Assembly: GCA_965220085.1 (NCBI GenBank)
Contig: CBDCOZ010000003.1
Location: 576,001 to 640,000 of the forward strand
Direction of reading: 5' to 3'
From: Candidatus Oxydemutatoraceae bacterium
GTDB lineage: Bacteria; Pseudomonadota; Gammaproteobacteria; Poriferisulfidales; Oxydemutatoraceae
DNA: 64,000 bases
Of this stretch, positions 6,722-53,457 are shown piece by piece. How positions within the stretch are numbered: position 1 is the stretch's first letter; every line of letters starts with the position of its first letter. The notes under the pieces are model-generated. The model had not been told where the DNA came from. It made no database searches and saw only the letters and a list, made by a program, of their open reading frames with translations. A program made the position numbers and the translations under genes.

Positions 6722-8732
6722 ATGAACCGACAAACTTCCAATACCGCCCCCTCAAGCAGGCGGAAGCGGTTGTATTTGCAAGCATATAACGCGAAGCAAA
6801 AAGATGTTAATACTACCCCCCCCCCCCCCCCCCCCGCATAGGCGGACAACGCTCACCCGGTTTAGCCTCTGGACGCTGGTTCTGCCAGTCCTGTTTGCCG
6901 TCTGTGAGCCGGTGCAGGCGCAAAACGATGCTCCCCGTGCGCGACCGTCCAGCGTTGATGTGTCCATAGACGCCACCGCCGCATCCCCGTACCGCTTCCA
7001 GTTATCCGACTTCCGCTTCACCGACACGGATGGTGATGCCCTCACCGAGCTGAAGGTGCGGGCGCCCACAAATGGCACTCTGCGGTTGGGCTCCACCGTC
7101 GTCACCGGCACCACCGTGCCGACCGCAACCATTGTAGCCCCGGGCAGCATATCCAACCTCAGTTACTATCCGCCCACGGGCCAGGCACAGACGCGCAACT
7201 ACGACACATTCCGCTTCGCTGTCGACACCGGACACGCCGTCACCTCAGCAAACATCATGACCATCCACCTGTTCAACCCCACTCAGGAGGCCGCCACTGG
7301 TGCGCCCACCGTGTCCGCCGCCGCCGGTGCCACAGCCTGGAACGAGGATGTGACCGTCACCGCCAGCGCCAGCGGCATAACCGACCCCAATGGCATAAAC
7401 ACCGGCTCCCTCAGATGGAAATGGCAAGTGCGGGGGAGCATGGGCGCATACACCGACATCAGCGGCGCAACCGCCGCCACATTCACCCCCCGGCAGGCGG
7501 ATGTGGGAACATTCATCCGCGTCTGCGCCTCTTTCAGGGACCTGCATGCCACGCCGGCCGACGAGACGCGATGCAGCAGCGGCTTCATCATAGCCAATGT
7601 CAGCGATGCGCCGATGGGTGCGGACAGCGAAGTGGATGTGCCCGACACCGCCACCTCCAGCGCGCCGCACGACTTTGACATATCCGACTTTCCTTTCACC
7701 GACGAGGATGGCGACACCATCAACGGCATACGCCTGACCAGCCTGCCCACAAGAGGCGCTCTGGTGGTGGTGGGCGAGACCCTGACCCTGACCGCCAGCA
7801 GCCCGCTGAGCCTGGCCCAGCTCAACGCTCTGGCATACTATCCGGCCGCTGGCGACACCCCGCGGGATGAATACGCATCTTTCACCTATAGAATTGTGGA
7901 TACCAGCACAGGCTCTGCCAACATATCCGAGGATGAATACACCCTGACCATCAACACTTCCACCACCCGGCAGGTTGCCGCCACTGGTGCGCCCGGCATC
8001 ACCCCGGCCCCCGGCCCCACCCACGCCGAGGACACCCGGTTGACCGCCGACACCACCGGCATCACAGAACCCAACAGCATAGACCAGAGCACCCTTAAAT
8101 GGCAGTGGCAATCGCACCCGGCCCCGGCCAGCGGCACTCCGGCCCCCAGTGCCTACACGGACATAGCCGATGCCACCGCCGCCACATTCACCCCATTGCA
8201 GGCCCATGTGGGCATGTACATCCGCGTATGCGCCTCTTTCAGGGATAATCACGCAACCCCCGCCGACGAGGGCCCGCTGTGTTCCGCCGCCGCCCGGGTG
8301 CACAATGTCGACGATGCGCCGGTGGCCCGTAACAACAGAGTTGATGTGCTTTCGTCCGCGGACAGCTCCAACCCCCACCGGCTCAGCCTGGACGACTTCC
8401 TCTTCGCCGATGAGGACGACGACAGCCTTGTCGCAGTGATATTTGTCCATCCGAGAAGAGGATTCATCCTCATTGAGAATGCCGACGGAACATCAACGGT
8501 CGTTCAAGGAGAGGTAGCTGTGGCAGATATAGGTCGCATCTTATATTACCCAGACGTCTTCGACCAGGGGCGGCTTGTTGAGGCATATACCACCATCAGA
8601 TTCCAAGTCGTGACCGGCGATGGCACCGACAACATGACCAGCGCCAACACGGCCGCCGTCACCATAGATCTGGTAGACAACCTCAACCTGCGCTTGCGGC
8701 TGCGCCTCTTCCTGGAAGGCCCGTTGCGGTAA
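6722..8732 (+). CDS. Secreted modular Ig/cadherin-like protein with C-terminal LEGPLR motif (member 1); leader frameshifted at a C20 tract
   Basis: Leader MNRQTSNTAP from 6722 (or ATG 6707) stops at 6839-6841. Removing one C from 6816-6835 fuses it to ORF 6804-8732. The ORF has a signal peptide (..VLFAVCEPVQAQ), alternating NDAP/DxDGD cadherin-like and W-x-W-Q/ATFTP Ig-like modules, and ends LRLRLRLFLEGPLR. Confidence 0.85.
6816..6835 (+). repeat. Poly-C tract (C20) inside the leader coding region
   Basis: Homopolymer; length cross-checked against the ORF-track translation (7 Pro). Confidence 0.9.
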
Positions 8733-10806
8733 TGGGAAACATACTTTATATACAAACCACACAGGAGTAATACGATGAACAGACAAATTTTTAATACTGC
8801 CCCAGACTGGCGGGCAACGCTCGCCCGGCGCAGCCTCCGGTCACTTATTCTGCCGGCCCTGTTTGTTATCTGTGCACAGGCGCAGGCGCAGAACGCCACC
8901 GGGGAACCGGGCGTCACGGCGGCCGACAGCGCCAACCTGACCATGGTCGGCCCCAATGAGGACAGCCAGTTGACCGCGGCCCGCGGTAGCATAATGGATG
9001 CCGATAGCATCACCACTTTCACGCCCGCCTGGGCATGGCAGGAGGCCGATGCCCCGGCCAGCGGCGCCCCCATGGACAACGCCTACTCCGCCATAGCCGG
9101 GGCAACCGCCGCCACTTTCACGCCCCTGCAGGCCCATGTCGGCAAGTTCATCCGCGTCTGTGCCACCTTTGACGATGACGGCGGCAACAGCGAGACCCGT
9201 TGCTGGACCTCCGTCGCTGCTGTGGTTAATGTCAACGATGCGCCGGTTGGCCTGCCCAATACCATTTATGTGCCGGCGGGCGGCAATTACACTTTTTCGG
9301 TGGCCGACTTTCCCTTTATCGATGAGGACGGCGACAGTCTAATCATAGCGGGAGTGGGCACGCCCACCAAAGGCACTTTTACCTTCAACGGCAATCCATT
9401 CACCACGGCCAATTCTGATTTCACGCTCGCCCGACTAACCGGCGCAGTTGGCTACAGGCCGCCCGCCGATGCGGGGCCCATGTCCGGCTATGCCACCTTT
9501 GAATGGGCTCCAACCACCAGGGACATCACAGCGGGCAACCTCGACAGGACGACAGTGCTTATCACCATAGATTTGGTGTCGGCCACGGCATCGGCGGCCA
9601 TGGGCGCGCCGACGGTGACGGCGGCAACCGGCATCGCCTACCACGAAGGCGTGGAACTGACCGCCAGCACAGGCACCGTATCCGATGCCAACGGCATCCC
9701 CACCCACACCCGTATCTGGCAATGGCAACAGTCCGCCGCCCAGGCCGGCACATACGCCGACATCCCCGGGGCCGCCGATGTCACTTTCACCCCCCTGCAG
9801 GCCCGTGTCGGCCGATACATCCGCGTCTGCCTCCGCTTCACCGACGGCATAGACGATGACGAGGGTGGCACCGCCGCTTCCCCGACGCTGTGCTCCGCCG
9901 GCGCCGTCATCGCCAGAACCAATTCGGTGAGTGTGCCGACTGCCGCCGGCGAATCAGGGCCCTACGAGTTCAAGCCATCCGACTTCATGTTCCCGGGCGA
10001 TGTCGGCAACCTGCAAAGCGTCACCATACGCACCGCCATAGCATCCGACAAGGGCATATTGCGCAACGGCGCCACCGCAGTGACCGCCGGCGCCACAGTG
10101 ACCGCCGCCGCCCTGCGCAACGGCGACCTCACTTTCTATCCCGCGGGCAGATTCGCCGCCACCCCCAACTACGCCAGTTTCACCTTCACCGTGAACTATG
10201 GCGGCGGCATAAACACCGGAATCCGCACCATGCACATACATCTGGTGGAGCATCTGCGCTTGCGGCTGCGCCTTTTCCTTGAAGGCCCGTTGCGGTAATG
10301 GGAAACACACTTTATGCACAAACCACACAGGAGTAATACGATGAACAGACAAACTTCTAATACTGCCCCGAACTGGCGGGCAACACTCGCCCGGCGTGGC
10401 CTCCGGTCACTTATTCTGCCGGCCCTGTTTGTTATCTGCGCTCAGGCGCAGGCGCAGAACGCCACCGGCACACCGGCGGTCACAGCGGCCGACAGCGCCG
10501 ACCTGACCATGGTCGGCCCGAATGAGGACAGCGCACTGACTGCGGCCCGCGGCACCATTAACGATGACGATCGCATCACCACTTTCACGCCCGCCTGGGC
10601 ATGGCAGGAGGCCGATGCCCCGGCCAGCGGCACCCCCATGGACAGCGCCTACTCCGCCATAGCCGGGGCCACCGCCGCCACTTTCACGCCCCTGCAGGCC
10701 CATGTCGGCAAGTTTCTGCGCGTCTGCGCCACCTTCGATGATGACGGCGGCAACAGCGAGACCCGATGCTGGACTTCCGTTGCGGCGGTTGTCAACACCA
10801 ATGATG
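8688..10806 (+). repeat. About 550-bp direct repeat pair (8688-9240 and 10254-10806)
   Basis: Same offset (1566) for the motif-coding sequence and the start codon; covers motif, stop, intergenic region, RBS, leader and first Ig module. Confidence 0.9.
8775..10298 (+). CDS. Secreted modular Ig/cadherin-like protein with C-terminal LEGPLR motif (member 2)
   Basis: RBS AGGAG, leader MNRQIFNTAP, signal peptide ending AQAQAQ, four Ig/cadherin-like modules, ends LRLRLRLFLEGPLR. Confidence 0.9.
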   Translation: MNRQIFNTAPDWRATLARRSLRSLILPALFVICAQAQAQNATGEPGVTAADSANLTMVGPNEDSQLTAARGSIMDADSITTFTPAWAWQEADAPASGAPMDNAYSAIAGATAATFTPLQAHVGKFIRVCATFDDDGGNSETRCWTSVAAVVNVNDAPVGLPNTIYVPAGGNYTFSVADFPFIDEDGDSLIIAGVGTPTKGTFTFNGNPFTTANSDFTLARLTGAVGYRPPADAGPMSGYATFEWAPTTRDITAGNLDRTTVLITIDLVSATASAAMGAPTVTAATGIAYHEGVELTASTGTVSDANGIPTHTRIWQWQQSAAQAGTYADIPGAADVTFTPLQARVGRYIRVCLRFTDGIDDDEGGTAASPTLCSAGAVIARTNSVSVPTAAGESGPYEFKPSDFMFPGDVGNLQSVTIRTAIASDKGILRNGATAVTAGATVTAAALRNGDLTFYPAGRFAATPNYASFTFTVNYGGGINTGIRTMHIHLVEHLRLRLRLFLEGPLR

Positions 10807-11474
10807 TCAGGGCCGTGCCCAGCAGTGTTGATTTCGCCATCGGTCGCACATCCCGCTTTCGTCTGAGCGACTTTCGCCATGAGGACGAAGAGGGCGATGA
10901 TTATGAGATAAATTCCATGATACTGACGGGGGTGCCCTCACGCACTCTCAGCATCGATGGGGCGCTGAATACACAAACTAATATATCTTTATTCCTAAGC
11001 GACTTCGCTTCAAACCGCGGCGGACTCACATACACACCGCCCGACACAGCCACTGTCGGCAGCAATCGCCTCAGCTTTAATTTCCAAGTGCTTGCCACCG
11101 GCTTTCAAGCAGGCCCTGTCGCCGCCATGACCGTCAATCTGGCGGCCAACAGCGCGCCCGATTTTGGCGATGCATCGGTGGGCACCCGTATTTGGCCGCC
11201 CGGCGCTGCGACCGCGCCTCTGGTATTGCCCGCAGCCACCGGCGGCAATGGCAGCATCGTCTACGGCATAAGCCCGGCCCTGCCCAATGGCCTCGCCTTT
11301 GATGCGGCCACCCGCACCATCAGCGGCACACCCACGGCGGCATCCGCCGTCTCCGAACACACCCTCACCGCCACCGATGCCGATGGCGACAAGGGTACGC
11401 TGCCCTTCGGCATAGACCCGATGCACCCCGTGCGCTTGCGCTTGCGCCTTTTCCTGGAAGGCCCCCTGCGGTAG
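10341..11474 (+). CDS. Secreted modular protein with putative Ig (He_PIG-like) domain and C-terminal LEGPLR motif (member 3)
   Basis: RBS AGGAG, leader MNRQTSNTAP, N-terminal ~155 aa nearly identical to member 2, LPAATGGNG..PALPNGLAFDAATRTISGTPT..TLTATDADGD domain, ends VRLRLRLFLEGPLR. Confidence 0.9.
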   Translation: MNRQTSNTAPNWRATLARRGLRSLILPALFVICAQAQAQNATGTPAVTAADSADLTMVGPNEDSALTAARGTINDDDRITTFTPAWAWQEADAPASGTPMDSAYSAIAGATAATFTPLQAHVGKFLRVCATFDDDGGNSETRCWTSVAAVVNTNDVRAVPSSVDFAIGRTSRFRLSDFRHEDEEGDDYEINSMILTGVPSRTLSIDGALNTQTNISLFLSDFASNRGGLTYTPPDTATVGSNRLSFNFQVLATGFQAGPVAAMTVNLAANSAPDFGDASVGTRIWPPGAATAPLVLPAATGGNGSIVYGISPALPNGLAFDAATRTISGTPTAASAVSEHTLTATDADGDKGTLPFGIDPMHPVRLRLRLFLEGPLR

Positions 11475-11583: not shown

Positions 11584-11822
11584 CAAGCATCTGGCGCACT
11601 TCGGCGCACACGATGACTACGCCCGCCGCCGGGCGCACCCTAGAGCGACACCACCCCGTCTATCTTTGCCAATCAGCGCCCATATGGCAAGAAGCCGCTT
11701 GCCCCGAAACTCCCGACGGGCGATGGTGAGTTCAATTCACATGGGAGGAGCTATGCCGGAAACACGCCTGGAATGGGGAATGCTAAATTTTGCGGAGTCA
11801 AAGTGTTCGCTATAATGCCGCC

Positions 11823-12791
11823 ATGAGCAACAAGGCAAAAGAGAGTACGGTGGCGCTTGCCGAATCCATCCTGACGCGGTGGACGGATTCGTTTCCGGTC
11901 CGCAAACGGGTCAGCCGCGGCAATGTCGCCGGAGGACTCGTTCTTTTGGAGCGGTTGAAAACCGGCTTCAATTTGGACATTCGGAGTCATATGACGCCGA
12001 ATGGATTCCAACTGAAAGGGGCGACGGCGGTCAAGGTCGGGGAAATTCTCAAGCGGCACGGGGAAACCCGCCCGCTGGCGAAAGAGGGCGGACGCACCAA
12101 TCGCGGACTGCTCGCCAATTTGAGCCGTCTGCTGGAATTGCTGAAAGCGGAAAAGGTCGGCGCGCTGTCCGGCGCGGCGCGGAACAATCTGCTGGACGCG
12201 ATGCAAAGCGGATTGGCGCGGCGAGCAGCGGAACTGCTGAACGCGAAAAAACTCCCGTTTCATTTCCCGTGCGCAACAACAACCCGAAGCGCCTTGCGCC
12301 GCATTTTGGACGAGGCGAAAGCCCGCGGCAAAGAGGGGGAGGTTGCGCAGCATCTGGTCGGCGCGAAACTTGCGCTGCGATTCCCGAACATCAGCATTGA
12401 AAACCGCCCCGCCAGCGCCGCCGATGAATCGGGCGGACAAGCGGGCGACTTTCTCGTCGGCGACACAGTGTTTCATGTCACCGTCGCCCCCAATACGGGG
12501 CATTACGACAAGTGCGCCGAAAATCTGGACGCGAATCTCCGCGTCTGCCTTTTGGTCTCCAACGGACTGTTGTTTGGCGTCCGCCAATACGCGCACGAGC
12601 GCTTCGGCGACCGCGTCGCGACGGAATCCTGCGAATCGTTTGTGTCGCAAAACATAGAGGAACTGTCCGAATTTTCCGGCGACAAGATTCGCGACGGCTT
12701 TCTGCGCCTGATGGAAACATACAACAAGCGCGTGCGCGAGGCGGAAACCGACTTGTCCCTGTTGATTGACATTCCGGAGTCCGGCAAATGA
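11823..12791 (+). CDS. DUF4928-like protein, putative restriction endonuclease
   Basis: GEVAQHLVGAKLALRF, GDFLVGDTVFHVTVAP and ESFVSQNIEELSEFS resemble DUF4928 proteins (recognised from memory). It overlaps the methyltransferase (ATGA) and has TATAAT at 11811. Confidence 0.7.
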   Translation: MSNKAKESTVALAESILTRWTDSFPVRKRVSRGNVAGGLVLLERLKTGFNLDIRSHMTPNGFQLKGATAVKVGEILKRHGETRPLAKEGGRTNRGLLANLSRLLELLKAEKVGALSGAARNNLLDAMQSGLARRAAELLNAKKLPFHFPCATTTRSALRRILDEAKARGKEGEVAQHLVGAKLALRFPNISIENRPASAADESGGQAGDFLVGDTVFHVTVAPNTGHYDKCAENLDANLRVCLLVSNGLLFGVRQYAHERFGDRVATESCESFVSQNIEELSEFSGDKIRDGFLRLMETYNKRVREAETDLSLLIDIPESGK

Positions 12792-13894
12792 CCGCCGCCA
12801 CCCCGCTGACCGCCGTTGAATACTTCGCCGGAATCGGCCTGACGCGCATGGGCTTGGAGCGCGCCGGATGGCGGGTGACATACTCCAACGATTGGAACCC
12901 GGAGCGGGAAAAAATCTACGCGGGATTTTTTTCCAAGAGTTACGAAGTGCGGGATGTCTTTGACATATCGCCGTCCGAGATTCCCAAATCCCTGCTGGCA
13001 ACCTGCTCGTTTCCGTGCGTGGACTTGTCGCTGGCGGGAAAACTGAAGGGGATTAACGGCCCGCATTCGGGCGCGTTTTGGGGGTTTCACCGGCTCCTGC
13101 GGGCGGGCGGCGAAAACACGCCGCCGTTGGTTCTGCTGGAAAATGTCTCCGGCTGGCTTTCCTCAAACAACGGCAGGGACTTTCGCGCCGTGATTGACGC
13201 GCTTAACGGATTGGACTACGCCTGCGATGTTTTCATGCTGAACGCGCGGCATTTTGTGCCGCAAAGTCGCCCGCGTGTTTTTGTAATCGGCATGCGCGGG
13301 GCTCCTAACGCAAGCGCCAATGACTTTCGCCTGCGCGGTCCGGATTTGACTCCGGCAAGAATCGCGGACGCGATTAAGCGCAATTCGGATTTGCGCTGGC
13401 AAATGGCGGACATTCCCCCGCCTCCGCCGCTGATGAATTCCGGTTTGTCGGCGGAGATTGTTGAGCGGCTGGCGGACGACGATGCGAGGTGGTGGCCGCG
13501 GGAGAAAGTGCGGAAGCATTTGGACATGATGTCGCCGCGTCATCGCAAAATGGTTGACGAATTTGCGGCGAATGGAAAGCCGGTTTGTCGGGCGTTTTTC
13601 CGCCGCCGCCGCGCGGAGGGTCAGCGCGCCGAGGTCCGAAGCGACGATATTGCGGGCTGTTTGCGAACCGCCATTGGCGGAAGCGGCAAGCAGTTTTTGG
13701 TCTTGGCCGGGCGGGGCGGCGTGAAAATGCGGACGATGACTTCGCGCGAATACGCCCGATTGCAGGGCGTTCCGGATTCCTTTCCCATTCGCGCCTCTTC
13801 CGAGCGGCGGGCGCTGGACGCTTTCGGCGACGCTGTATGCGTTCCGGCGATTGAATGGATTGCCCGCAACATTCTCGCGCCATTGACCCATTGA
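12788..13894 (+). CDS. dcm: DNA (cytosine-5) methyltransferase
   Basis: Motif I EYFAGIG, motif IV SFPCVDLS, motif VI LLENV, motif VIII PQSRPRVF, and REYARLQG. Confidence 0.95.
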   Translation: MTAATPLTAVEYFAGIGLTRMGLERAGWRVTYSNDWNPEREKIYAGFFSKSYEVRDVFDISPSEIPKSLLATCSFPCVDLSLAGKLKGINGPHSGAFWGFHRLLRAGGENTPPLVLLENVSGWLSSNNGRDFRAVIDALNGLDYACDVFMLNARHFVPQSRPRVFVIGMRGAPNASANDFRLRGPDLTPARIADAIKRNSDLRWQMADIPPPPPLMNSGLSAEIVERLADDDARWWPREKVRKHLDMMSPRHRKMVDEFAANGKPVCRAFFRRRRAEGQRAEVRSDDIAGCLRTAIGGSGKQFLVLAGRGGVKMRTMTSREYARLQGVPDSFPIRASSERRALDAFGDAVCVPAIEWIARNILAPLTH

Positions 13895-14065: not shown

Positions 14066-14152
14066 CGCGAGGCCGCCGCCGATTCCATCCTCACCATCAA
14101 TCTGTTGCATGCTCTGCGCCTGCGCCTTTTCCTGGAAGGCCCCCTGCGGTAG
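14066..14152 (+). pseudogene. Orphan 3' remnant of a LEGPLR-family gene
   Basis: Translates as REAAADSILTINLLHALRLRLFLEGPLR-stop with no start codon; in-frame TGA at 14063. Confidence 0.85.
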
Positions 14153-25099: not shown

Positions 25100-25196
25100 T
25101 TTCATGTGCGCATTTAATGAGGCACAAACAATACTTAATTGTTTGCGGATTGTTTAATGAGGCACAAACAATACTTAACTGTTTGCGGATTGTTTT
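25100..25196 (-). repeat. CACAAAC modular repeat element, copy 3, directly upstream of fur
   Basis: Tandem duplication of tttaatgaggcacaaacaatacttaa(t/c)tgtttgcggattg. Confidence 0.85.
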
Positions 25197-34534: not shown

Positions 34535-34886
34535 TGGTGGAGGCGGCGGGAATTGAACCCGCGTCCGCACATTCTCCGCCTTTGGCGCTACATGTTTAGT
34601 CTGTCCGTATTACTAATCGCTTCCGACAGACAGGAAGACAGATTAGGTTGCCTGTCAAAAGTTTAACAAGCTAACCACAGGCGGATTAGCTTGCGATCTT
34701 GCGAAGACGACCCCCAAGCTCTTGTCACAAGCGCCGCAAGTTGGGAGGCATGGACGGGTGTTTAGGCCGCCAGTGCGTAGTTGTCGTTGTTGGCAACTAT
34801 AATTTTGCGGCAAGTTTAACGAGATTAGCCACATGCTCGACATGCGCCTCCGGTTTCGCAATGTGTGTCGAAACCACATCGCCCCC
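34535..34886 (-). ncRNA. ssrA: tmRNA
   Basis: 5' GGGGGCG..GGTTTCGAC, 3' T-arm GGTTCAATTCC and CGCCTCCACCA acceptor stem, internal tag reading frame ANNDNYALAA-stop. Confidence 0.96.
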
Positions 34887-40200: not shown

Positions 40201-40941
40201 GGGGCAGACCGAAGCGATTTTAAGTTTGAGGCCAAAGGCTCCGATTACGGCAGGCTGCTCAGAAATTGGGGATATAACACCAGTCTGCGCGATGGCAAAG
40301 GCCAGGCGCGCGGGCATCTCAGATGGGATGCGCCCGCTTATGCGATAGACATTGAGAAAATGAACGGCGCCGCTTCGTTTGATATCAAGGACGGGCGGGT
40401 CAAAGCGCTCGAGGTCGGCGCGGGCAAACTATTGGGCCTTTTGAATATCGGCGCGCTCGCGCGACGGTTCACATTGGATTTCAAAGACATATTTGACAAG
40501 GGTTTCAGTTTTGACGAATTCGGAGGGAACATAGAATTTAACGAAGGGAATATGCTGACCGATGACATCGTCATCAAAGGCCCCTCGCTTGACATGATTA
40601 TCAGCGGGCGCACCGGCATTGCGACCCGCGACTACGACCAAAGCATAGATGTCGTGCCCGACTTCAGTTCCAACCTTCCCTTGGCAACCGCGCTATTGGG
40701 CGGCCCGATCGCCGGCGCGCTCGTCTTCCTGGTGGACACGGTAACCGACCTCGGCGATGAGTTTGACGAAGCCATCGTGATGCGTTACACCTTGAAAGGG
40801 AGTTGGGAGGATCCGCAAGTGGATTTTGTCGAAGCGCCGACGATCAATCGCTTAAACCCCGGCGAGAGGCTGAAAGGGCTCTTTGACAGCGTGGGGGAAG
40901 GCATCAAGAAAGTCATGCCCGCCGGCGATGAGGACAACTAG
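37204..40941 (+). CDS. yhdP: YhdP/AsmA-like lipid transport protein
   Basis: 1245 aa, N-terminal membrane anchor, C-terminal GAGKLLGLLN..LARRFTLDFKDIFDKGFSFD and YTLKGSWEDP. Confidence 0.85.
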   Translation: MKSVLLFLKRVSYVVAAVIVLTAILSLVFRWGLIRIDDYRDEIIAALEDATGARVAIGRLEASLRGLNLSVKAADLKLASPAGEDDGIAVAEAIIGIDGLASLFNMEWALESVYLSQAKLKAATDRDRNLLLPDIGLAIPLQAPLYGLTAHGDMARRLHTRIRVDGLDVEWSSPLHPQALHFEDISLVIDKESADAYIALDASLPRQFGKHIRISVGDDGVYLRAEMLELANVLAEAGMTSPLDGRLSAELAWQADEAEHKLGIFNLRLQSPSLTLENAKASVMQRKRADGKFQTVLHFDLGEDARIDAQRMQALRDAAAKHIGEIATEVGLIETAAVTAKFEHDTSLFALPGRESSWSESVSDTLQWEHLTAVKSDLALERVILTENSRLLDRVVLQAGLHRSRDDMVLDINKAELYAGGAVLKGNARIDGKDMSHITTQFRLEDMPVTDALDWLPADAPLFPQAQSGLRETFQGGEIKRAEVYFDGALSLPVKLSENRFRMQAEAEGISVLYAKEQPPLHDVDATITASNEMFEARVRSFRSLGATGRNASVVIRDITDPYLEAKATLHAPLQDVFAYLETLPDLFATRDTLDGIQAAGDTWIALDLGLPLAEPAEQPLLFSLTFDLDKNALTFDESFPQIQDIEGRLVIAHDDARAENIGATLAGHPIVLSAHVKNDDLVFAAAAESLPASVLSQLASIPPDLLDGVSDWRAELVLSSLYSQTDTEDETISFRAASNLQGLALRLPRPFGKSHAQAADFRFATDLSDTDGRTSIAYAELARLDFLSEASPPVGTLRFSPQLPYPAAPIPADGFGIRGTIQEAHLSEWREWRDERRALFRDSKSGGRGDDTSHLFDNIDVTAEQTTLADNRFGELKVRTDRDSNNNLVMEIASEPIAGRITFPSSDAARTYVDMQRLHIDHPIADTATEDTPDPREIAPMAVKINSFRFENIRLDNLKMSVDSNKEGIDIPRLDFEHIHKDHVILRARLKGSWTREGGADRSDFKFEAKGSDYGRLLRNWGYNTSLRDGKGQARGHLRWDAPAYAIDIEKMNGAASFDIKDGRVKALEVGAGKLLGLLNIGALARRFTLDFKDIFDKGFSFDEFGGNIEFNEGNMLTDDIVIKGPSLDMIISGRTGIATRDYDQSIDVVPDFSSNLPLATALLGGPIAGALVFLVDTVTDLGDEFDEAIVMRYTLKGSWEDPQVDFVEAPTINRLNPGERLKGLFDSVGEGIKKVMPAGDEDN

Positions 40942-41124
40942 CGTGTGTGTCGGGCGGCCCGACGCAAACAGCGGATGGATAATGCCGGAAACATTGCGGA
41001 CTCCCGGCATCAACGCGGGATAAAAGCCACTATGGACGCCTGCCGCCTCAGCCGCTCCGTAGCCCCTGCGCTTGCGGCTGCGCCTTTTTCTTCAAGGCCC
41101 CCTGCAATAATGCGAGTAATCAGC

Positions 41125-41290
41125 GGCGGAGAAGGGGAGTATCATGGGGCGCACACAAAGGGGTGAAAAGGCGCTTGCAAATGATTGAACTTGTGATATA
41201 GTGCAACACTTATCGTATAACAGCCTTCGCGGGCACAAGATACAAAGGTATTTGCAAATGACTGACACTCTGTGGCATAGCGCAACATCA
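41125..41290 (+). promoter_or_regulatory. Conserved tandem-promoter block upstream of LEGPLR locus 2
   Basis: TTGCAA-N16-TATAGT (41175-41202) and TTGCAA-N18-CATAGC (41252-41281); colinear with 50040-50260. Confidence 0.6.
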
Positions 41291-41405
41291 AACAATCCGC
41301 AAGCAACTGAGTGTTGTTTGCGTACACTAAGTAATTCACAAACAGTTAAATATTGTTTGTGCTCTCATATCGTTTGTGCTTCATTAAATGTTGCTTGTGT
41401 ACATA
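41290..41405 (+). repeat. CACAAAC modular repeat element, copy 4
   Basis: aaacaatccgcaa..cacaaacagttaaatattgtttgtgctctcatatcgtttgtgc..ttgtgtacata; same 3' end as copy 1. Confidence 0.8.
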
Positions 41406-41453: not shown

Positions 41454-44400
41454 ATGAATAGACAAGCTTTTAATACTGCCCCCCCCCTCCCCCCCCACCT
41501 AGCGTACACGCAGGCAGGGCAACGATGGCCCTGCGTAGCCTCATCTGGCTGCCAGTTGCGCTATGCGCTCAAATCTGGGCGGGCACTGATGCCGTCGCTC
41601 AGTCCAAACCGGAAGCCGGCATCGCCACCGTCATGGTGTCCATCAGGGCCACCGCCGACAGCCCATATGTATTCAAGCTGGCCGACTTCCCTTTCGAAGA
41701 TGCCGATGACGACGCATTGACCGCCGTAGAGATAAGGAGTGTGCCGGGCACTGGCACATTGCGGGTGGGGTCCGCCGCCGCCACGGTCGGCCAGACTGTG
41801 ATGCGCGCCAGCATAGTCTCAGGCTCCATCACCTATTATCCGTCGTCGGCACCTCGTGTCACCAGCTTTTTCTACCGAGTGTACGCTGGCGGCGAGTCTT
41901 CCGATAATTTGGGCACCGTCAACATCGTTTTGTTTGACCCGCCAAACTCCTCCCCCCACCGGCACCTTGGGCATAGCCGCCCGCATCGAGCCTGCCACCA
42001 CCTGGACCGAGGACTCGCGCATAACAGCCACCGTAGGCTCGGTCGCCGATGACGACGGCATAAACGCTGGCTCCACGTCCTGGAAGTGGCAGCAGGCCGC
42101 GCCGATCAACGACGCGGCACCCGCCGATGACAGCGCGAGCTGGAGCGACATACCTGGCGCGACCAACTTCTCTTTCACCCCCCTGCAAACCCATGTGGGC
42201 AACTATGTGCGCGCCTGCTACAGCTTCACCGACGAGTACCACATTCCCGCGACCTACACCATCTGCACCCTCAACAGGCTGGTGACCAATGTCAGCGATG
42301 CCCCCACCGGCAGCGATACCACCGTCAATGTGCCCCTTGGCGCCAGTTCCGCTTCCCCGCATGATTTTGACTTGAGCGACTTTCCCTTTTCCGATACCGA
42401 GGACGGCGATGCCTTCAACGGCATCCGTCTGGCCACCCTGCCATCTGCGGGCACTCTGGTGGTGACCAGCAATACCGACCTGACCATCGACCAGGGCACC
42501 AATCTCAGCTTGGCGCAACTGAGTGATCTGGCCTATTACCCCAGCGACGGCGCCACCGCCGGGACCAACCGCGACAGATTCACCTACAAAGTGACAGACA
42601 CCGGCAACGATGCCGCCACCGATGGCGCCATCGCCAACACCGCCGCCACCGCCGCCACGCTGACCATCAATCTGGTGGACGACCCGGCTACCGGCATGCC
42701 CGCGCTGGCCTACGCCAGCGGCATAACAGTCCCCACCGAGGACAGCCCCATAACCGCATCCCAAGGCACCATAGCCGATCCCAGCAACACCCCGCCCACC
42801 AGCATCGGCACCATCAACTGGCAATGGAGCCAGGCCGACAGTGACGGCGGCATCTACACCGACATATCCGCGGCCACCAATGCCGCTTTCACCCCCGGCG
42901 ATGCTCAGGTGGGCATGTTTTTGCAGGTCTGCGCATCGTTCACCGACAGCGACGGCGATAACGAGAGTCGCTGTCGGCAAATACCCACCGCCGTCGCCAA
43001 CATCAATGACCCTGCCGCCGGTGCGGTGGCCATCAGCACCGCCGACGGCGCCCTCAGCGGCGCGCCGGACGAGGATGCGGCCCTCACCGCCAGCGCGGCC
43101 GGCATAACCGACCCCGATGGCACCGCCAACATTGCCGGCAGCCTGCGATGGCATTGGCGCGAAGATGGCCGGGGCAACGGCGTATTCGCCGATATAGAGG
43201 GGGCCACCGGCGCCGCCTTCACCCCCTTGCAGGCGCAGGTGGGCAACGCCCTGCGGGTCTGCGCCAGTTTCACCGATGACAGAGGCAGCCGGGAAAATCT
43301 TTGCATCACCACCGAGCCGGTTGCCAACACCAACGATGCGCCGATGGCACAGCGCCGCAGAATCTCAGTGTCCGTCGCCGCCAATGCCAGCGCCCCCTAC
43401 GCATTCCGCCCTCAGGACTTTCCGTTCACCGATGACGATGACGACAACCTGGCCGGCATCATATTGAGAGACCTGCCCGGTGCGGGCACCATGGCTCTGG
43501 ATGGCACCGCCTTGACCGCCGTCCCCACAGAGACCATAACAGTGGCCCAACTGCAGGCTGGCACCCTCACATATTGGCCGGAGACGGGGCAGCAACCCAC
43601 CAGATTAGACACGTTGGATGCATCCTATAGCCTCTTCAGGGCCAGGGTGGTGGACGATGGCGACGGCCCGGGCGGCGATGTCGATGCCGACAAAACCAGC
43701 GACATAAGCGGTCTCCTCGCTCACATCCGCCTGGTGCAGGCGGAACAAGCCAAAGCCACTGGCGGGCCTCGGGTAAGTGTGCACAATGTTGGCGTGGCCG
43801 CCGTCTGCCCCGAGGGTAGCGAACTGCAGGTCCGCATCGATGGCATAGTTGAGCCCAACGGCATAGACGAGAGCACTGTGATGTGGCAATGGCAACAATC
43901 CGCCCGCGCCGACGGCGGCTTTGTCGACATAGCGGGCGCGACCGCCGCCACCCTCACCCTGACCCAGGCCCAGGTGGGAATGCACATACGCGCCTGCGCT
44001 ACCTTTATGGACCACCACCCCACAGCCCCGGCGCGGGAGAGTCTCTGTAGCTCCCCGGTGCGAACCAATAACGCGCCGAGGGCTCTGGACAGCGTGGCGC
44101 TCGTACCCACCGCGGCCACCGTAGCAGCGCCTTATGTGTTTAGGGCGAGCAACTTTCGCTTTGCCGATGCGGACATCGGCAGTGGTGCGGCCGGCGGCTC
44201 TCTGGCAAGTGTCACAATCACCGGCGCGCCAAACCGGGGTACCTTGCGCGCGGGGACGACGACCATCACCACAAGCAATGTGCCGCACGAGGTAAGCAAC
44301 ATCTCCACGCTCACCTACTATCAGGAGGATGGCGATGATGAGCCTATGCGAGACTATGCCCGATTCCGATTCACTGTCAGCGACGGCATAGAGAGCAGCG

Positions 44401-44480
44401 CCGCCGCCACGATGCGCATAGACTTGGGGGACAGCCTGCGCTTGCGCTTGCGCGTCTTCCTTGAGGGGCCGCTACGGTAG
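41454..44480 (+). pseudogene. LEGPLR-family secreted modular protein (member 4), split by two frameshifts in C runs
   Basis: RBS AGGAG and MNRQAFNTAP at 41454; C9-T-C8 tract at 41479-41496; signal peptide and first module in ORF 41525; C6 run at 41952-41957; remainder in ORF 41856-44480 ending LRLRLRVFLEGPLR. Confidence 0.85.
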
Positions 44481-44672: not shown

Positions 44673-45512
44673 ATGAGACATTATGAAATTGTATTTTTAG
44701 TGCATCCGGGGCAAACCGATCAGGTGCCGGAGATGATTAACCGCTACTGTGCGCTTGTCACAGACGGCGGCGGCAAAGTACACCGTCTGGAAAACTGGGG
44801 GTTGCGCAACTTGGCGTATCCGATCAGAAAGGAAGACAAAGCGCACTATGTCTTGATGAACATTGAATGCCTGCATGAGGCTTTGGACGAAATCAAGAAT
44901 TCCTTCCAGTTCAATGATGCGATTATCAGAGACATGATAGTCCGTTGTGACGAAGCGGTTACCGACGCGTCAACCATCATGAACGCCACGACTCGCGAAG
45001 CGGAAAAGGCGGCACAGGAAGCACAAGCCGCACAGGCAGAGCAAGCGGCACAGACAGGGCAAGCCGCACAGGCAGAACAAGCGGCACAGACAGGGCAAGC
45101 CGCACAGGCAGAGCAAGCGGCACAGGCAGAGCAAGCGGCACAGGCAGAGCAAGCGGCACAGGCAGAGCAAGCCGCACAGGCAGAGCAAGCCGCACAGGCA
45201 GAACAAGCCGCACAGGCAGAACAAGCCGCGCAGGGAACGCAAGCCGCACAGGCAGAGCAAGCCGCACAGGCAGAACAAGCCGCGCAGGCAGAGCAAGCCG
45301 CGCAGGCAGAGCAAGCGGCACAGGCAGAGCAAGCCGCACAGCCAGAACAAGCCGCGCAGGCAGAGCAAGCGGCACAGACAGAACAAGCCGCACAGGCAGA
45401 GCAAGCGGCACAGGCAGAGCAAGCGGCACAGGCAGAGCAAGCGGCACAGGCAGAACAAGCGGCACAGCCAGGGCAAGCCGCGCAGACAGAACCTACGGTA
45501 TCGGCGAAATGA
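44673..45512 (+). CDS. rpsF: 30S ribosomal protein S6 with long repetitive C-terminal tail
   Basis: [40 protein letters not shown]; followed by rpsR. Confidence 0.96.
45015..45482 (+). repeat. 18-bp coding tandem repeat x26 (QAEQAA)
   Basis: Unit CAGGCAGARCAAGCSGCR; 468 bp. Confidence 0.97.
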
Positions 45513-50260: not shown

Positions 50261-50340
50261 TCGTACGACTGCATTCGCCAAACAGGAGGCATATGCACCA
50301 GGATAACATATTATTAATATACAAATATTTAATTATGCTA

Positions 50341-50362
50341 CCCCCCCCCCCCCCTCCCCCCC
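50341..50362 (+). repeat. Poly-C tract (C14-T-C7) in the leader region
   Basis: Direct reading; consistent with the poly-Gly in the reverse ORF translation. Confidence 0.9.
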
Positions 50363-50390
50363 GCTCCCCAGTGCGCATCAGCGGACAACG

Positions 50391-53249
50391 ATGGTCCGGC
50401 TTAGCCTCTGGCTGCCGGCCCTGCTCGCCTTGTGCCTGACATTGGGCGCAACCCGGGCCGACGCTCAAGGCAGTAGCAAAGATGCCGCAACCACGATAAG
50501 ATTGGACAGAACCGTATCAGAAGTCCATCTGCTGAGGGGAGGTGTCCATTGGTGGAAGTTTACGCTGACTTCGACCTCATTGGTCACTATTGAAGCCACA
50601 GGCGAAACTGACACTCAGGGAAAACTGGAAGACAGCGCGGGCGCAACATTGGACATTGATGATGATGGCGGCGCAGGCGCTAACTTCAAGATTGTCAGGG
50701 TTCTTGGCGCGGGCGCTTATTACGTAAGAGTCGCCGGTTACAGCTCTGCAACAACAGGAAATTACCGTCCGAGCGTCACAACGGCCGCACTCTCAACCGC
50801 TGCCGCCATAACATTGGGCACCGCCGTATCAAAGACCCTCGCCGCGGGGGGTGTTGATTACTACAGGCTTGCGCTGACTTCGCGTTCAGCGGTTACTGTT
50901 CAAACCACAGGCTCAACCGACGTCATAGGACTGTTGCAAGACAGTGCGGGCGCGCCGTTGGAAGCCAATGATGACAGCGGCGCAGGCGATAATTTCAGGA
51001 TTGACAGAACTCTTGATGCAGGCGCTTATTACGTAAGAGTCTCCGGTTTCAACCCCACAACAACGGGAAGTTACAGTTTGAGCGTCACCCGGGATGCCGC
51101 CCCCACCAACAGCAGAGGAACAGCGACTGACATAACATTGGGCAGAACCGAATCAAGAAATCTGCCGAAGGGGGGTGTCCATTGGTGGAAGTTTACGCTG
51201 CTTGCGACCTCATTGGTCACTATTAACACAAACAAAATTAACACACAGGGAAAACTGGAAGACAGCGCGGGCAACACATTGGACACCGATGCTGATAGCG
51301 CAACCGGCTTTTCCGGCGCTTTCAAGATTGTCAGAGTTCTTGGCGCCGGCGCTTATTACATAAGAGTTTCCGGTTTCAGCTCCGAAGTAACAGGAAATTA
51401 CGATCTGACCGTCACAGCGGCCGCAACCACAATCGCAACCGCAATAACACTGGGCGGCGACGCCGTATCAAAGACCCTCGCCGCGGGGGGATTTGATTAC
51501 TACAGGTTTGCGCTGACTTCGACCTTGCCGGTTGTCATTGAAACCACAGGCTCAATCGATGTCAGAGGACTGCTGCAAGACAGCGCGGGCGCGCGTATTG
51601 AAGCCAATGATGATAGCGGCGCAGGCGATAACTTCAGGATTGACAGAGTTCTTGATGCGGGCGCTTATTACGTAAGAGTCGCCGGTTTCAACCCTGTGGT
51701 AGCGGGAGATTACAGTCTGAGCGTCACACATGTCCCGAACTCCGCCCCGACCGGCGCCCCGATTGCCAATGACGGGAGTGATCCGACCGAGGACGCCACC
51801 ACCGTGGTCGAGGACACCACCGTATATGTCTTCCAGGGCACACTCAACGATGACGACGGCACAGACCTCAGAGCCGCCTCCCTGAGCTGGCAGCAGGCTG
51901 CGCCGGTCAATAACGCGGCGCCCGCCGATGACAGCGAGGGCTGGAGCGACATACCCGGCTGGAGCGACCTGTCCACCGCGGACATCATTCGTTTCATCCC
52001 TCTGCAAGCCCAGGTGGGCAAATATGTGCGCGCCTGCCTCACTTTCACCGACGAGCACTTCGTCCCCGAGACCTCCACCGTCTGCACCGCCAGCAAGTTG
52101 GTGACCAATGTCAGCGATGCGCCCGCCGGCCGCGACACCACTGTGGATGTGCCCGACACCGCCACCGCCGCCAATCCGCACGACTTTGACATAAACGACT
52201 TTCCGATTGACGACGAGGATGGCGACACCATCAACGGCATACGCCTGGTCAGCCTGCCGACGACGGGCACTCTGGCGGTGGCGGGCGAGACCCTGACCCT
52301 GACCGCCGGCGCCACCCTGACTCTGGCGCAACTGGAGGCGCTGGCCTATTACCCCGACAGCGGCTCCTCCCCCATGGACGGCCACGACAGCTTCGACTAT
52401 CGCATCATAGATGACGGTAGCGGCGCCGCCAACATATCCGAGGATGCCTACACCCTCACGATCAATCTGTTCGCCAACCCACAGATTGCCGCCACCGGGG
52501 GACCAAGCATCACCCCGGCCACCAGCGCCCAGATCCTCACCCACGCCGAAGACACCGAGTTGACCGCCAACACCGTCGGCATAATGGAGCCCAATGGAAT
52601 AGACCAGAGCACACTGCGATGGCAGTGGCAGTCCGCCCCGGCTCCGGTCAGCGGCGCTCCGACGGAAAGCGCCTACATTGATATAGCCACGGCGACCGCC
52701 GCCGCCTTCACCCCGTTGCAGGCTCATGTGGGGCTGTACATCCGCGTCTGCGTCTCTTTTATGGACGAGTACGTACCCGCCGCCGAATATGGCCCGCTGT
52801 GTTCCGCCGCCGCTCGGGTGCGCAATGTCAACGATGCGCCGGTGGCGCAAAACCGCACGATAAATGTGTCGGCGGATGCCACCATGAGCGAGCCCTACAC
52901 ATTCGCCGCCGCCGACTTTTCCTTTGCCGATGGGGACCATGACAACTTGGCCAGTGTGGAGATTGCCAGCCTGCCGAGCGCCGGCACCCTGCAAATAAAC
53001 GGCGCTGACGCCCCTGTCGGTGGGATCGTGCCCGCCGCCAACATCGGTACCATCACCTACTGGCCGGCGGCTGAGCAGGATGCCCAGACCGGTTACGCCA
53101 CCTTCGACTTCAAGGTGACCGACGATGGCAACGATGGCAACGGCAACAAAACTTCCGCCACCGCCGCCATCACCATCAATCTGGCGGAGCGCCTGCCGCA
53201 GCACCTGCGCTTGCGGCTACGCCTATTCCTTGAAGGCCCGTTGCGGTAG
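50391..53249 (+). CDS. LEGPLR-family secreted protein (member 5) with four PPC-like domains plus Ig/cadherin-like modules
   Basis: Signal peptide (..LTLGATRADAQ), 4 repeats of about 100 aa (DDSGAGDNFRI.R.L.AGAYYVRV.G), then modules shared with members 1 and 4; ends LRLRLRLFLEGPLR. The frame is open upstream to 50307 and encodes the leader homologue INIQIFNYATP. Confidence 0.9.
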   Translation: MVRLSLWLPALLALCLTLGATRADAQGSSKDAATTIRLDRTVSEVHLLRGGVHWWKFTLTSTSLVTIEATGETDTQGKLEDSAGATLDIDDDGGAGANFKIVRVLGAGAYYVRVAGYSSATTGNYRPSVTTAALSTAAAITLGTAVSKTLAAGGVDYYRLALTSRSAVTVQTTGSTDVIGLLQDSAGAPLEANDDSGAGDNFRIDRTLDAGAYYVRVSGFNPTTTGSYSLSVTRDAAPTNSRGTATDITLGRTESRNLPKGGVHWWKFTLLATSLVTINTNKINTQGKLEDSAGNTLDTDADSATGFSGAFKIVRVLGAGAYYIRVSGFSSEVTGNYDLTVTAAATTIATAITLGGDAVSKTLAAGGFDYYRFALTSTLPVVIETTGSIDVRGLLQDSAGARIEANDDSGAGDNFRIDRVLDAGAYYVRVAGFNPVVAGDYSLSVTHVPNSAPTGAPIANDGSDPTEDATTVVEDTTVYVFQGTLNDDDGTDLRAASLSWQQAAPVNNAAPADDSEGWSDIPGWSDLSTADIIRFIPLQAQVGKYVRACLTFTDEHFVPETSTVCTASKLVTNVSDAPAGRDTTVDVPDTATAANPHDFDINDFPIDDEDGDTINGIRLVSLPTTGTLAVAGETLTLTAGATLTLAQLEALAYYPDSGSSPMDGHDSFDYRIIDDGSGAANISEDAYTLTINLFANPQIAATGGPSITPATSAQILTHAEDTELTANTVGIMEPNGIDQSTLRWQWQSAPAPVSGAPTESAYIDIATATAAAFTPLQAHVGLYIRVCVSFMDEYVPAAEYGPLCSAAARVRNVNDAPVAQNRTINVSADATMSEPYTFAAADFSFADGDHDNLASVEIASLPSAGTLQINGADAPVGGIVPAANIGTITYWPAAEQDAQTGYATFDFKVTDDGNDGNGNKTSATAAITINLAERLPQHLRLRLRLFLEGPLR

Positions 53250-53283
53250 CGGGCGCCACCGCAACGGGCGTTACCCCCCTAAC

Positions 53284-53457
53284 TTCGCACCGGCTGCCGC
53301 ACAACTGGGCAGGTATGTGCGTGCCTGCGTTTCTTTCAAGGATCAGTTTTCCTCGTCCGCATCGGAAGGTCCGCTGTGTAGCGCCGGCATTCTGGTGACA
53401 CAGTTGCCTGAGGTGCGCTTGCGGTTGCGCATCTTCCTTGAAGGCCCGCTACGGCAG
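53284..53457 (+). pseudogene. Orphan 3' remnant of a LEGPLR-family gene
   Basis: FAPAAAQLGRYVRACVSFKD..EGPLCSAG..VRLRLRIFLEGPLR, with the stop changed TAG>CAG; no own start. Confidence 0.85.

Follow-up and report, generated by a model that had tools for sequence, protein, structure and literature searches.

A C-terminal arginine/leucine peptide of secreted proteins in a Candidatus Oxydemutatoraceae genome, its probable origin as the first strand of an unnamed dockerin module, and a candidate docking partner

We analyzed a stretch of 64,000 nt from the genome of a Candidatus Oxydemutatoraceae bacterium (assembly GCA_965220085.1, contig CBDCOZ010000003.1, positions 576,001 to 640,000 of the forward strand), which is called the window below and which encodes several secreted modular proteins with a common C-terminal peptide. 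The peptide, here called the tail, has the consensus RLRLR[LIV]FLEGPLR followed by a stop codon and, as read from the sequence, represents a strand of 14 residues in which Arg and Leu strictly alternate. The tail is under selection at the level of the peptide, occurs beyond chance, and is more widespread than a few recent paralogues. It did not arise de novo but is very probably a fission product of a still unnamed dockerin module, descending from strand 1 of this module. The remainder of the module is encoded by a separate gene for a secreted protein, the adaptor, and a structure prediction makes it fairly probable that the tail docks in trans into this shared adaptor as a donor strand.

Occurrence of the tail in the source genome and in related genomes

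The source genome of the window (G000), that of a marine bacterium, has a size of 2.49 Mb and is assembled in three contigs, two of which, C1 and C3, are referred to below. A six-frame search of G000 with the pattern [FLIVM]LEGP[LIVM]R yielded 222 matches, 217 of which are immediately followed by a stop codon (TAG in 137 cases, TAA in 52, and TGA in 28), and the reversed control pattern yielded no match in the same genome. When E, P, and R were left free in the pattern, 217 matches were retrieved, and 214 were retrieved when FLEGPLR was fixed. Synonymous variation is present at every codon of the tail, e.g. the Leu at position -6 is encoded by CTG (96), CTT (76), TTG (26), CTC (17), TTA (4), or CTA (3). 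Because the codons vary synonymously and three different stop codons are used while the peptide remains fixed, selection acts on the peptide. The original prediction had drawn this conclusion from the copies in the window, and it holds across the 217 tails of the genome.

The fraction of tail proteins was estimated with a crude greedy call of open reading frames (ORFs), which resulted in 2,094 ORFs for G000. A terminal tail is present in 166 of them, and these comprise 153,016 aa, i.e. 18.4% of the genome and 20.5% of all ORF residues. Their lengths range from 130 to 15,193 aa, with eight ORFs of at least 3,000 aa. According to a crude test, 135 of the 163 tail ORFs with a length of at least 150 aa have an N-terminal hydrophobic region, compared to 588 of the 1436 non-tail ORFs.

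The sequences that precede the tail fall into several types that are unlike one another (crude motif sort), and acidic linkers also precede it. In addition, three secreted proteins of G000 (C1:23868-25292, C1:36358-37998, and C3:1171425-1173515) carry the motif at the N-terminus, directly after the signal peptide and before a GGSSS linker (MKKLL..VWA-NPMTVPQDVL..PLRLRLRVFLEGPLR-GGSSS), showing that a C-terminal position is not required. Downstream of the N-terminal motif, two of these proteins have PPC repeats, and the third has an S1/trypsin-like domain. The protease family of C1:36358-37998 mostly forms the N-terminal domain of giant proteins in relatives. Because unlike sequences and acidic linkers precede the tail, and because the motif is N-terminal in three proteins, it is unlikely, judging from these sequences, that the tail is merely the final strand of the preceding Ig domain.

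It had been proposed that the motif fits none of the known sorting signals, and in agreement with this proposal no described sorting-signal model of Pfam or TIGRFAM matches the tail. Pfam searches with six proteins of the window retrieved body domains only (Cadherin_4, Big_9, He_PIG, PPC, and Cadherin_3), and NCBIfam searches with four of the window proteins retrieved no sorting-signal model at E≤1. A word-index search for homologues of the last 48 aa of one of these proteins, that of gene B (see below), gave nine matches, all nine from G000 itself. No match was found in a literature search for motif strings of the tail and the module, and the titles and abstracts of the literature on 'Porisulfidus' contain nothing on the tail.

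For comparison, we searched 19 genomes of the family, i.e. G000 and its relatives (G001 etc.), which belong to six genera, as well as 34 genomes from three sister families. FLEGPLR followed by a stop codon occurs 214 times in G000 and, among 40 relatives, in four genomes that all belong to a single other genus (15, 2, 2, and 1 times). These relatives encode the same core of the peptide with quite different codons, e.g. AAGGTCTTCCTAGAAGGGCCACTACGCTAG in G011. Other lineages have variants of the tail, i.e. RIRVFLEGALE and ..ALQ in genus g4, KVFLEGPLQ and ..GPFR in genus g3, and LRLRVFLGGMIR (VFLGGMIR) in genus g5, in each case directly before the stop codon. The tails of g3 are mixtures of K, V, and I, and the final residue differs among the lineages, being R, Q, E, or P.

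The broader pattern [RK]x[RK]xFLxGx[LIV..]x followed by a stop codon was found in 14 of the 19 family genomes and in five of the six genera, with 217 matches in G000, 41 in G009, 25 in G016, and 3-16 in the others, and the reversed control of the broadest pattern had seven matches in total. The FLEG-type pattern is absent from all 34 genomes of the three sister families. The four genomes of genus g2 and G008 have no tails under any of the patterns tried, including the loosest one, and G008 has no adaptor either. A scan of 185,579 species genomes for the strict motif revealed three loci in 'Ca. Porisulfidus' records and one chance-like match without a stop codon. The presence of tails in most genomes and in five genera of the family rules out a confinement to recent paralogues, which had been named as an outcome that would speak against a general signal.

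The unnamed module and the adaptor

Four giant tail genes were examined in two genomes of 'Porisulfidus' (G015 and G002), and each of them is followed by a gene for a secreted protein of ~277-288 aa. The motifs VVDWVLMELR, ARKPAFLLSNGRVVDA, and RHRNHL are found in this protein, and its end is dockerin-like. G000 contains a single homologue of these proteins, the adaptor of 322 aa, the gene of which (C3:469169-470137) is located ~106 kb upstream of the window and outside it. An adaptor profile (A2) matches 17 of the 19 family genomes.

G001, a genome without tails, has 28 matches to the profile, the majority of which are within giant ORFs with lengths of up to 17,496 aa. The sole copy that was read, L043, has the module at its C-terminal end (...VVVDARVYLQGAYGGSRGMSTGL..LP..QPY..DWVLVELR..HHRNHL..dockerin). 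The end of L043 reads ...IANDDRLVVVDARVYLQGAYGGSRGMSTGLIDVLPRRQPYNVAPWNY...IVDWVLVELR...HHRNHLSVIS...GDVDRNGVID..., and the module is opened by ARVYLQGAY, a pattern like that of the tail. The body repeats of the G001 giant match the tail-bearing giants of G000, and its C-terminal module matches only the G000 adaptor. The fused form of G001 and the split form, consisting of tail and adaptor, provide Rosetta-stone evidence.

All 35 aligned stand-alone adaptors begin, after the signal peptide, at M-x-T-x-L..P..DPYC, i.e. directly past the position of strand 1. In agreement, none of the 33 stand-alone rows from a library search, including that of G000 itself (P0061), contains the strand-1 motif. 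The library search compared the profile with 1.84 billion representatives and retrieved 5,383 proteins at E≤1e-3, of which 1,179 had E≤1e-10. Strand-1 motifs were counted in the best 150 of the 5,383 proteins. There, 65 of the 84 embedded copies have the motif [..][LIV..][FYILVM]L[EQDS]G[PAS] at a distance of 40-62 aa, most often 50 aa, before the DWVLVEL core, with EVDIKVFLEGPFNGSDMNTGL (P0110) and DLQIKVFLEGPFNGTNM (P0132) as examples of fused strands. Among the short, stand-alone-like proteins, 45 of 53 are devoid of the strand motif. The counts of strands obtained with this expression are underestimates, e.g. three fused copies of the g5 type read INVLLGGAVRG. In the examples that were read, the embedded copies are mostly C-terminal. 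The original prediction had pointed to a similar xKVFLEGP strand at the start of a domain in some secreted proteins of Bacteroidota; this strand turned out to be strand 1 of the unnamed module, as seen in the embedded copies. According to a rough assignment by cluster labels, the nearest ESM-Atlas clusters are mostly from Bacteroidota and Ignavibacteriota.

The intact module comprises a β-module of ~190 aa, which starts with L-x-L-K-V-F-L-E-G-P-F/Y and contains the motifs DWVLVELR and HRNHL, followed by a dockerin of ~60 aa. Scans of eight representatives revealed no Pfam or NCBIfam model that covers the module, and the first ~190 positions of the profile have no solved relative by sequence. 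The last ~60 positions of the profile (A5) match solved dockerins, i.e. 2vn5_B (E 7.1e-5) and two chains of the CipA XDoc type, 2b59_B (E 9.1e-4) and 3kcp_A (E 3.3e-3). At E≤1, 31 solved chains were retrieved, and almost all of them are dockerins or dockerin-bearing cellulosomal proteins. Dockerins consist of two Ca-binding loop-helix repeats of ~22 aa, and the adaptor of G015 matches Dockerin_1 with an E value of 0.01.

Strand 1 was modelled with 15 columns, based on 70 foreign fused copies, and the model was searched against the last 30 aa of the 2,094 ORFs of G000. The model had 111 matches at E≤0.01, and all 111 are tail ORFs. The scores of all 166 tail ORFs are between 11.0 and 17.3 bits, and the best non-tail match, with 10.0 bits, is to a degenerate tail, FLEGSLR. 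A control with mid-protein segments gave no match. An hhalign comparison of the tails with the module alignment resulted in one match, which covers the strand-1 columns only (E 8.5e-4, probability 24%, 15 columns). In g5, the tail and the fused strand have shifted together from LEG to LGG (VFLGGMIR before the stop codon vs. VLLGGAVRG in the fused form). The break point is constant and is located three residues past the Gly, which corresponds to the 'F-N-G-x-x-M' loop of the intact module. In the cargo chain, all that follows strand 1 in the module (M-x-T-x-L, LP..QPY, DWVLVELR, HRNHL, and two Ca-loops) is missing; it is carried by C3:469169-470137. As the remainder is encoded by a separate gene, the cargo proteins are split members of the module family and not full ones.

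Docking, anchoring, and alternative explanations

The mature adaptor (residues 32-322, alignment of 35 rows) was co-folded with the last 40 aa of gene B (alignment of nine tails). The scores were 0.78, 0.77, and 0.73 (median 0.77), compared to 0.00 for the best of three controls. The mark of 0.77 is reached by 116 of 157 solved complexes and by 2 of 215 mismatched pairs. The runs share at least 66% of the contacts, and the pLDDT of the partner is at least 53. On the side of the partner, the confident interface consists of residues 24-40, i.e. the tail (VEHLRLRLRLFLEGPLR). On the side of the adaptor, it consists of residues 32-36, 106-113, 129-141, 162-177, 184-202, 210-221, and 242-247, which include the DWVLV and HHRNH segments. 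It had been suggested that the peptide could be a donor strand that docks interchangeable adhesins onto a shared scaffold, and this suggestion gains reasonable support from the fused and split forms and from the predicted complex with the adaptor.

The following route is compatible with the predictions. Cargo and adaptor, which both have signal peptides, would cross the inner membrane by Sec. The envelope machinery of G000 comprises one Omp85 protein (BamA), one TolC, a complete operon for a type II secretion system (T2SS), and a pilus-type secretin. The outer membrane would probably be crossed through the T2SS, because it is the only outer-membrane machine that was found besides BamA, TolC, and the secretin. 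The Leu/Arg strand of the cargo is then predicted to insert into the incomplete sheet of the adaptor and to complete its fold. The dockerin of the adaptor might clip the pair to a surface partner, and a GlyGly-CTERM-like protein that is processed by a neighbouring rhombosortase is a candidate for this partner. This last step is a guess from gene order and the weakest part of the proposed route. The cell would thereby be coated with ~170-220 adhesin-like proteins that are interchangeable and use a single common socket.

The gene order in question is the following. The T2SS operon of G000 (C3:452100-466032) is followed by two rhodanese genes and small ORFs and then by the adaptor cassette. The adaptor gene is succeeded by the gene for the GlyGly-CTERM-like protein of 1369 aa (C3:470148-474257), at the C-terminus of which a choice-of-anchor-U-like domain (30.3 bits, cut-off 32) is followed by G8, a hydrophobic helix, and RRQRR. 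The rhombosortase gene comes after it (TIGR03902, 96 bits, cut-off 84), and both genes are within C3:470148-475553, ~100 kb upstream of the window. The same order of adaptor, GlyGly-CTERM-like protein, and rhombosortase (TIGR03902, 127 bits) is present in G011. In seven of the 19 family genomes (G000, G002, G006, G007, G011, G015, and G017) an adaptor gene precedes the rhombosortase gene on the same strand at a distance of at most 15 kb, and in ten genomes the rhombosortase gene is located within 12 kb of T2SS-L. In G006 (C1:679605-682322) and G010 (C33:47440-50052), three tandem genes for strand-less adaptor-like proteins are located between the T2SS operon and the gene for a giant GlyGly-CTERM protein. 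In Vibrio cholerae, the processing of T2SS-dependent surface proteins by GlyGly-CTERM and rhombosortase has been established (PMC6219818, PMC3237569).

The anchor end of the 1369-aa protein is found on many large proteins of tail-less genomes, i.e. 11 in G010, 8 in G006, 5 in G014, and 2 in G008, compared to 0-1 in genomes with tails. A metagenomic homologue of gene C (P0040, 798 aa), with Cys-containing Ig-like (Cys-Ig), cadherin-like, and He_PIG modules, ends in an autotransporter β-domain (PF03797) in the place of the tail; PF03797 was over its cut-off in none of the 19 family genomes. The ends of several other metagenomic homologues look frameshifted. Because fused, split, GlyGly-CTERM, and autotransporter ends occur on the same kinds of bodies, the family thus uses alternative C-terminal anchors on like bodies, i.e. 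the fused module, the split tail with its adaptor, GlyGly-CTERM, and the autotransporter.

Several points weigh against the descent from strand 1 or the docking to a surface-bound adaptor. The test with the strand-1 model is partly circular, as the training segments were chosen by a motif that was modelled on the tail, and the hhalign probability is low (24%), because the match spans only 15 columns. The co-fold joins two halves of one family, and its pass may reflect that the intact family was learned by the predictor. With one adaptor gene for ~217 tails in G000, stoichiometric docking needs a very high expression of the adaptor. G006 and G010 have three genes for strand-less adaptor-like proteins each and are without tails under any pattern. 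The G000 adaptor has no Pfam dockerin match, and its first Ca-loop is degenerate and contains an insertion. Furthermore, no cohesin was detected in G000, where the best match to PF00963 (E 0.056) is below the cut-off and divergent cohesins could escape. Beyond its anchor end, the 1369-aa neighbour has no Pfam match and no solved relative in searches of Pfam, NCBIfam, and PDB.

The tail could instead be an autonomous secretion or sorting signal that is read by a transporter, either by the T2SS via the PDZ-like end of GspC or by another outer-membrane factor, so that the descent from strand 1 would be mere history and the adaptor uninvolved. In favour of such a signal, the T2SS of G000 is complete, its GspC matches PDZ weakly (E 0.025-0.04), the cargo proteins have Sec-type signal peptides, and, according to PMC12369372, Vibrio cholerae requires the PDZ domain of EpsC to secrete a GlyGly-CTERM protein via the T2SS. 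One adaptor gene for ~217 cargoes would also fit a catalytic or transient reader better than a stoichiometric socket. However, all 19 family genomes have a T2SS regardless of tails, a last residue that is R, Q, E, or P depending on the lineage is poorly suited for a PDZ domain that reads the carboxylate, the motif is found N-terminally before a GGSSS linker in three proteins, and the tail co-occurs with strand-less adaptors and co-folds with one of them. We consider an autonomous signal unlikely. The same imbalance in gene numbers, the location of the adaptor gene next to the T2SS operon in G000, G006, and G010, and all structural evidence for docking would also be compatible with an adaptor that acts as a periplasmic or secretion-coupled chaperone or pilot, i.e. 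that complements the strand transiently, hands the cargo to the T2SS, and is recycled. Such a chaperone would not explain why the adaptor retains a dockerin and descends from a cargo-borne module that stays attached in the fused forms, and the adaptor genes of g3, which follow individual giant cargo genes one-to-one, fit a stoichiometric partner. This makes it the least probable of the explanations considered here.

Two further explanations do not involve a protein partner. Cationic amphipathic peptides bind anionic lipids, and the strict alternation of Arg and Leu would be expected for a strand with an Arg face and a Leu face that anchors non-specifically to anionic lipopolysaccharide or to sulfated glycans of a host. 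Nevertheless, the most conserved part is FLEG(P/A)L and not the Arg ladder, foreign fused copies have D/N and K/T at the equivalent positions, the g3 tails are mixtures of K, V, and I, and the exact break point and the strand-less adaptor would remain unexplained, so that non-specific anchoring is very improbable. An even smaller chance is given to tails that are functionless truncation stumps, kept alike by gene conversion, or DNA recombination handles for the shuffling of adhesin cassettes. The many gene-end remnants (e.g. 14066-14152, 41075-41110, and 53413-53457 in the window), the tandem arrays (e.g. C3:513743-514211), and the downstream DNA shared by groups of paralogues, with CGCGAG after 60 of the 217 tails, are compatible with stumps or handles. 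Stumps would be expected to decay, yet EGPLR is kept in 214 of the 217 tails. The free synonymous change under a fixed peptide, the use of three stop codons, and the same peptide core with quite different codons in relatives (e.g. G011) also argue against a role of the DNA, and so does the folding energy at the stop codon, which gives no signal (mean -10.6 vs. -10.2 for shuffled sequences).

Six additional candidates were tried and rejected. An RNA or DNA hairpin across the stop codon (CCCGCT..AGCGGG) has the folding energies just mentioned, and all six of six pairs are formed in only 21 of the 217 tails. The S1-type protease C1:36358-37998 was discarded as a dedicated processing enzyme, because the presence of its family, which itself serves as a cargo domain, in 11 of 41 relatives does not depend on tails. 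An Arg-protease product mimic or a C-end-rule signal in LEGPLR is not compatible with the lineage-specific last residue. The T2SS was rejected as a tail-specific machine because T2SSL is present in 19 of the 19 genomes, an extra Omp85/TpsB or TolC because G000 has only one of each, and binding of the tail to the PDZ domain of GspC because the PDZ signal is only weak.

We compared the docking of the tail into the adaptor with known systems. The tripartite signals LPXTG, PEP-CTERM, and GlyGly-CTERM consist of a motif, a hydrophobic transmembrane helix, and a basic cluster, whereas the tail has no helix. Like the tail, GlyGly-CTERM with its rhombosortase addresses exported surface proteins of Gammaproteobacteria via their C-terminus; it is linked to the adaptor in the genome and takes the place of the tail on large proteins of tail-less relatives, but the tail has no Gly-rich motif, transmembrane helix, or basic cluster. 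The expected substrate of the G000 rhombosortase is the neighbouring GlyGly-CTERM-like protein and not the tail. The C-terminal domain of the type IX secretion system of Bacteroidota (Por_Secre_tail) is also a common C-terminal address on many unrelated secreted proteins. In contrast to the 14-aa tail, it is a folded unit of 70-100 aa with a dedicated secretion system and sortase, and it has no Pfam match on the six window proteins. The β-signals of the BAM complex and of autotransporters belong to a C-terminal β-barrel with an aromatic end, whereas the tails end with R, Q, E, or P. Type I secretion signals use ABC, MFP, and TolC proteins and do without a Sec signal peptide, unlike the tail proteins, most of which (135 of 163) have an N-terminal hydrophobic region.

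The closest likeness is to the unnamed module itself, the first strand of which corresponds to the tail and all the rest to the adaptor, and both are located at the extreme C-terminus of large secreted proteins. The difference is that here it is split over two polypeptides past strand 1 and that one gene serves ~200 cargoes. The XDoc part of CipA, a clostridial scaffoldin (PDB 2b59, 3kcp), also has a β-sandwich-like module directly before a C-terminal dockerin; in contrast, its β-module has no detected sequence similarity, the module in G000 is split, no cohesin was found, and G000 is a Gram-negative species with T2SS and rhombosortase instead of a cellulosome. In chaperone-usher pili, an incomplete β-fold is completed by a strand with alternating hydrophobic residues from another chain, and the predicted action of the tail is likewise that of a strand donated to an incomplete fold. 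However, the acceptor is not a pilin, no polymer is formed, many donors share one acceptor, and neither the usher (PF00577) nor the PapD-like chaperone (PF00345) has a match in G000. SpyTag/SpyCatcher and split-GFP are engineered pairs, in which a strand tag completes a strand-deleted domain, with a covalent bond in the case of SpyTag. They have in common with the tail that a short β-strand on any cargo completes a catcher, but the tail is natural, presumably non-covalent, and distributed across a fifth of the proteome.

G000 might accordingly contain a natural 'tag and catcher' at the scale of a proteome. In this symbiont-type genome, about 170-220 adhesin-like proteins, the longest with 15,193 aa, would take up a fifth of the coding capacity and share one strand of 14 residues and one adaptor, which would be clipped via its dockerin to a rhombosortase-anchored scaffold exported by the T2SS, and ~70 genes with poly-C tracts of 13-28 nt would permit a phase-variable re-dealing of the set. 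Among the known sorting and assembly signals, it would be the first with an origin in domain fission after strand 1. The complete picture is offered tentatively, as possible rather than probable.

If the docking is correct, the tail would represent a new mode of surface addressing, in which the address consists of one strand and a shared partner contributes the remainder of the fold, unlike cleaved signals or folded docking domains. A small genome could then afford ~200 interchangeable surface proteins at a cost of 14 residues each versus a module of ~250 residues, and protein engineering would gain a natural, already optimized pair of peptide and acceptor. The tail is also an entry point to a very large module family without a name and without a Pfam model (5,383 representative clusters), and it links this family to the T2SS/rhombosortase route of surface display. 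The surface biology of uncultured relatives of 'Ca. Porisulfidus' becomes testable with two recombinant proteins.

Genes and remnants in the window

The original prediction listed seven copies of the peptide in the window, and all seven were found at the stated positions. Five copies end real ORFs (genes A to E); the copies at 14114-14152 and 53413-53457 are remnants, the latter without a stop codon. The ascribed MNRQ leaders are present in genes A to D, but those of A and D are out of frame as assembled, across poly-C, and the leader of gene E reads MLPPPP... In the sequences of the window genes, signal peptides of the type ..AQAQAQ are clear. All genes and remnants of the family in the window are on the plus strand.

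Gene A (6804..8732) encodes 642 aa with a signal peptide, cadherin-like and Cys-containing Ig-like modules, and the tail LRLRLRLFLEGPLR at 8688-8729, followed by TAA. Its Cadherin_4 match is weak, and its match to ZirU_fam (42 bits) is under the cut-off. The leader of gene A (6722..6841, MNRQTSNTAP...NTTPPPPPPPA and a stop codon) contains a run of 20 C (6816-6835); in the assembly, it is shifted by one base relative to the frame of the main ORF. Gene B (8775..10298, 507 aa) has an in-frame MNRQIFNTAP leader, a signal peptide, Cadherin_4/Big_9 modules, and a tail at 10254-10295. Gene C (10341..11474) encodes 377 aa when counted from MNRQTSNTAP, and the first ATG of the frame, at 10314, would give 386 aa. 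It contains Cys-Ig, cadherin-like, and He_PIG domains, the last with a Pfam E value of 5.8e-9, and its tail is at 11430-11471.

A gene-end remnant of 28 codons (14066..14152) ends with TINLLHALRLRLFLEGPLR and a stop codon; its tail (14114-14152) is shorter by one RL unit. This remnant is a DNA duplicate of the 3'-end of gene C and ~130 nt downstream of it. Between gene C and the remnant (11790-13894), there is an ORF of 333 aa, followed by an ORF of 368 aa with ..ATCSFPCVDLS... The latter looks like a C5 cytosine DNA methyltransferase, and the pair is a possible restriction-modification system. A degenerate eighth copy of the tail, RLRLFLQGPLQ and a stop codon, is located at 41075..41110 in the spacer after the ORF 37204-40941. 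Tandem arrays of tail-encoding gene ends, with periods of ~58-168 nt, are also found elsewhere in the genome (C3:513743-514211, 648679-648967, 908957-909461, and 1303809-1303926).

Gene D is frameshifted as assembled. In its 5'-part (41455..42052), the leader MNRQAFNTAPP.. (ATG at 41455) has two C8 runs and is not in frame with the ORF 41525-42052, where the signal peptide and the first cadherin-like module are encoded. The main frame (41856..44480), an ORF of 874 aa that is in a different frame from this N-terminal ORF, encodes Cys-Ig and cadherin-like modules and the tail LRLRLRVFLEGPLR (44436-44477). Gene E (50336..53249) has a poly-C leader with the ATG at 50336, which is out of frame with an ORF of 952 aa (50391-53249). 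Its domains are four PPC, Cys-Ig, and cadherin-like, and its tail is at 53205-53246. After gene E, the tail remnant at 53413..53457 (EVRLRLRIFLEGPLR followed by CAG, i.e. ...FLEGPLR-Q) is the final piece of a decayed Cys-Ig gene end.

In total, G000 contains 100 runs of C or G with at least 8 nt, mostly of 13-28 nt, and no runs of A or T with at least 10 nt. Of these 100 runs, 69 are found at the 5'-ends of 69 of the 166 tail ORFs; on the coding strand, every one of them consists of C and is translated to poly-Pro in the leader. In the window, such tracts are present at 6816-6835, 41478-41496, and 50342-50363 (genes A, D, and E). Among the other genera, g4 and g2 also commonly have long C/G runs, g3 and g5 rarely have them, and in g6 none was found. 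Either the tracts make a very large number of surface genes phase-variable (contingency genes), or they are homopolymer errors of the assembly.

Short tandem or dispersed repeats with CACAAACA / TGTTTGTG are located at 6486-6602, 24489-24582, 25113-25201, and 41280-41400, upstream of several tail genes, and may be shared regulatory sites. The window furthermore contains an rpsF gene (44673-45512) with a C-terminal extension, in which 26.6 copies of an 18-nt unit (45012-45490) encode (QAAQAE)n, and a tmRNA gene on the minus strand (34535-34886; Rfam RF00023, 197.6 bits).

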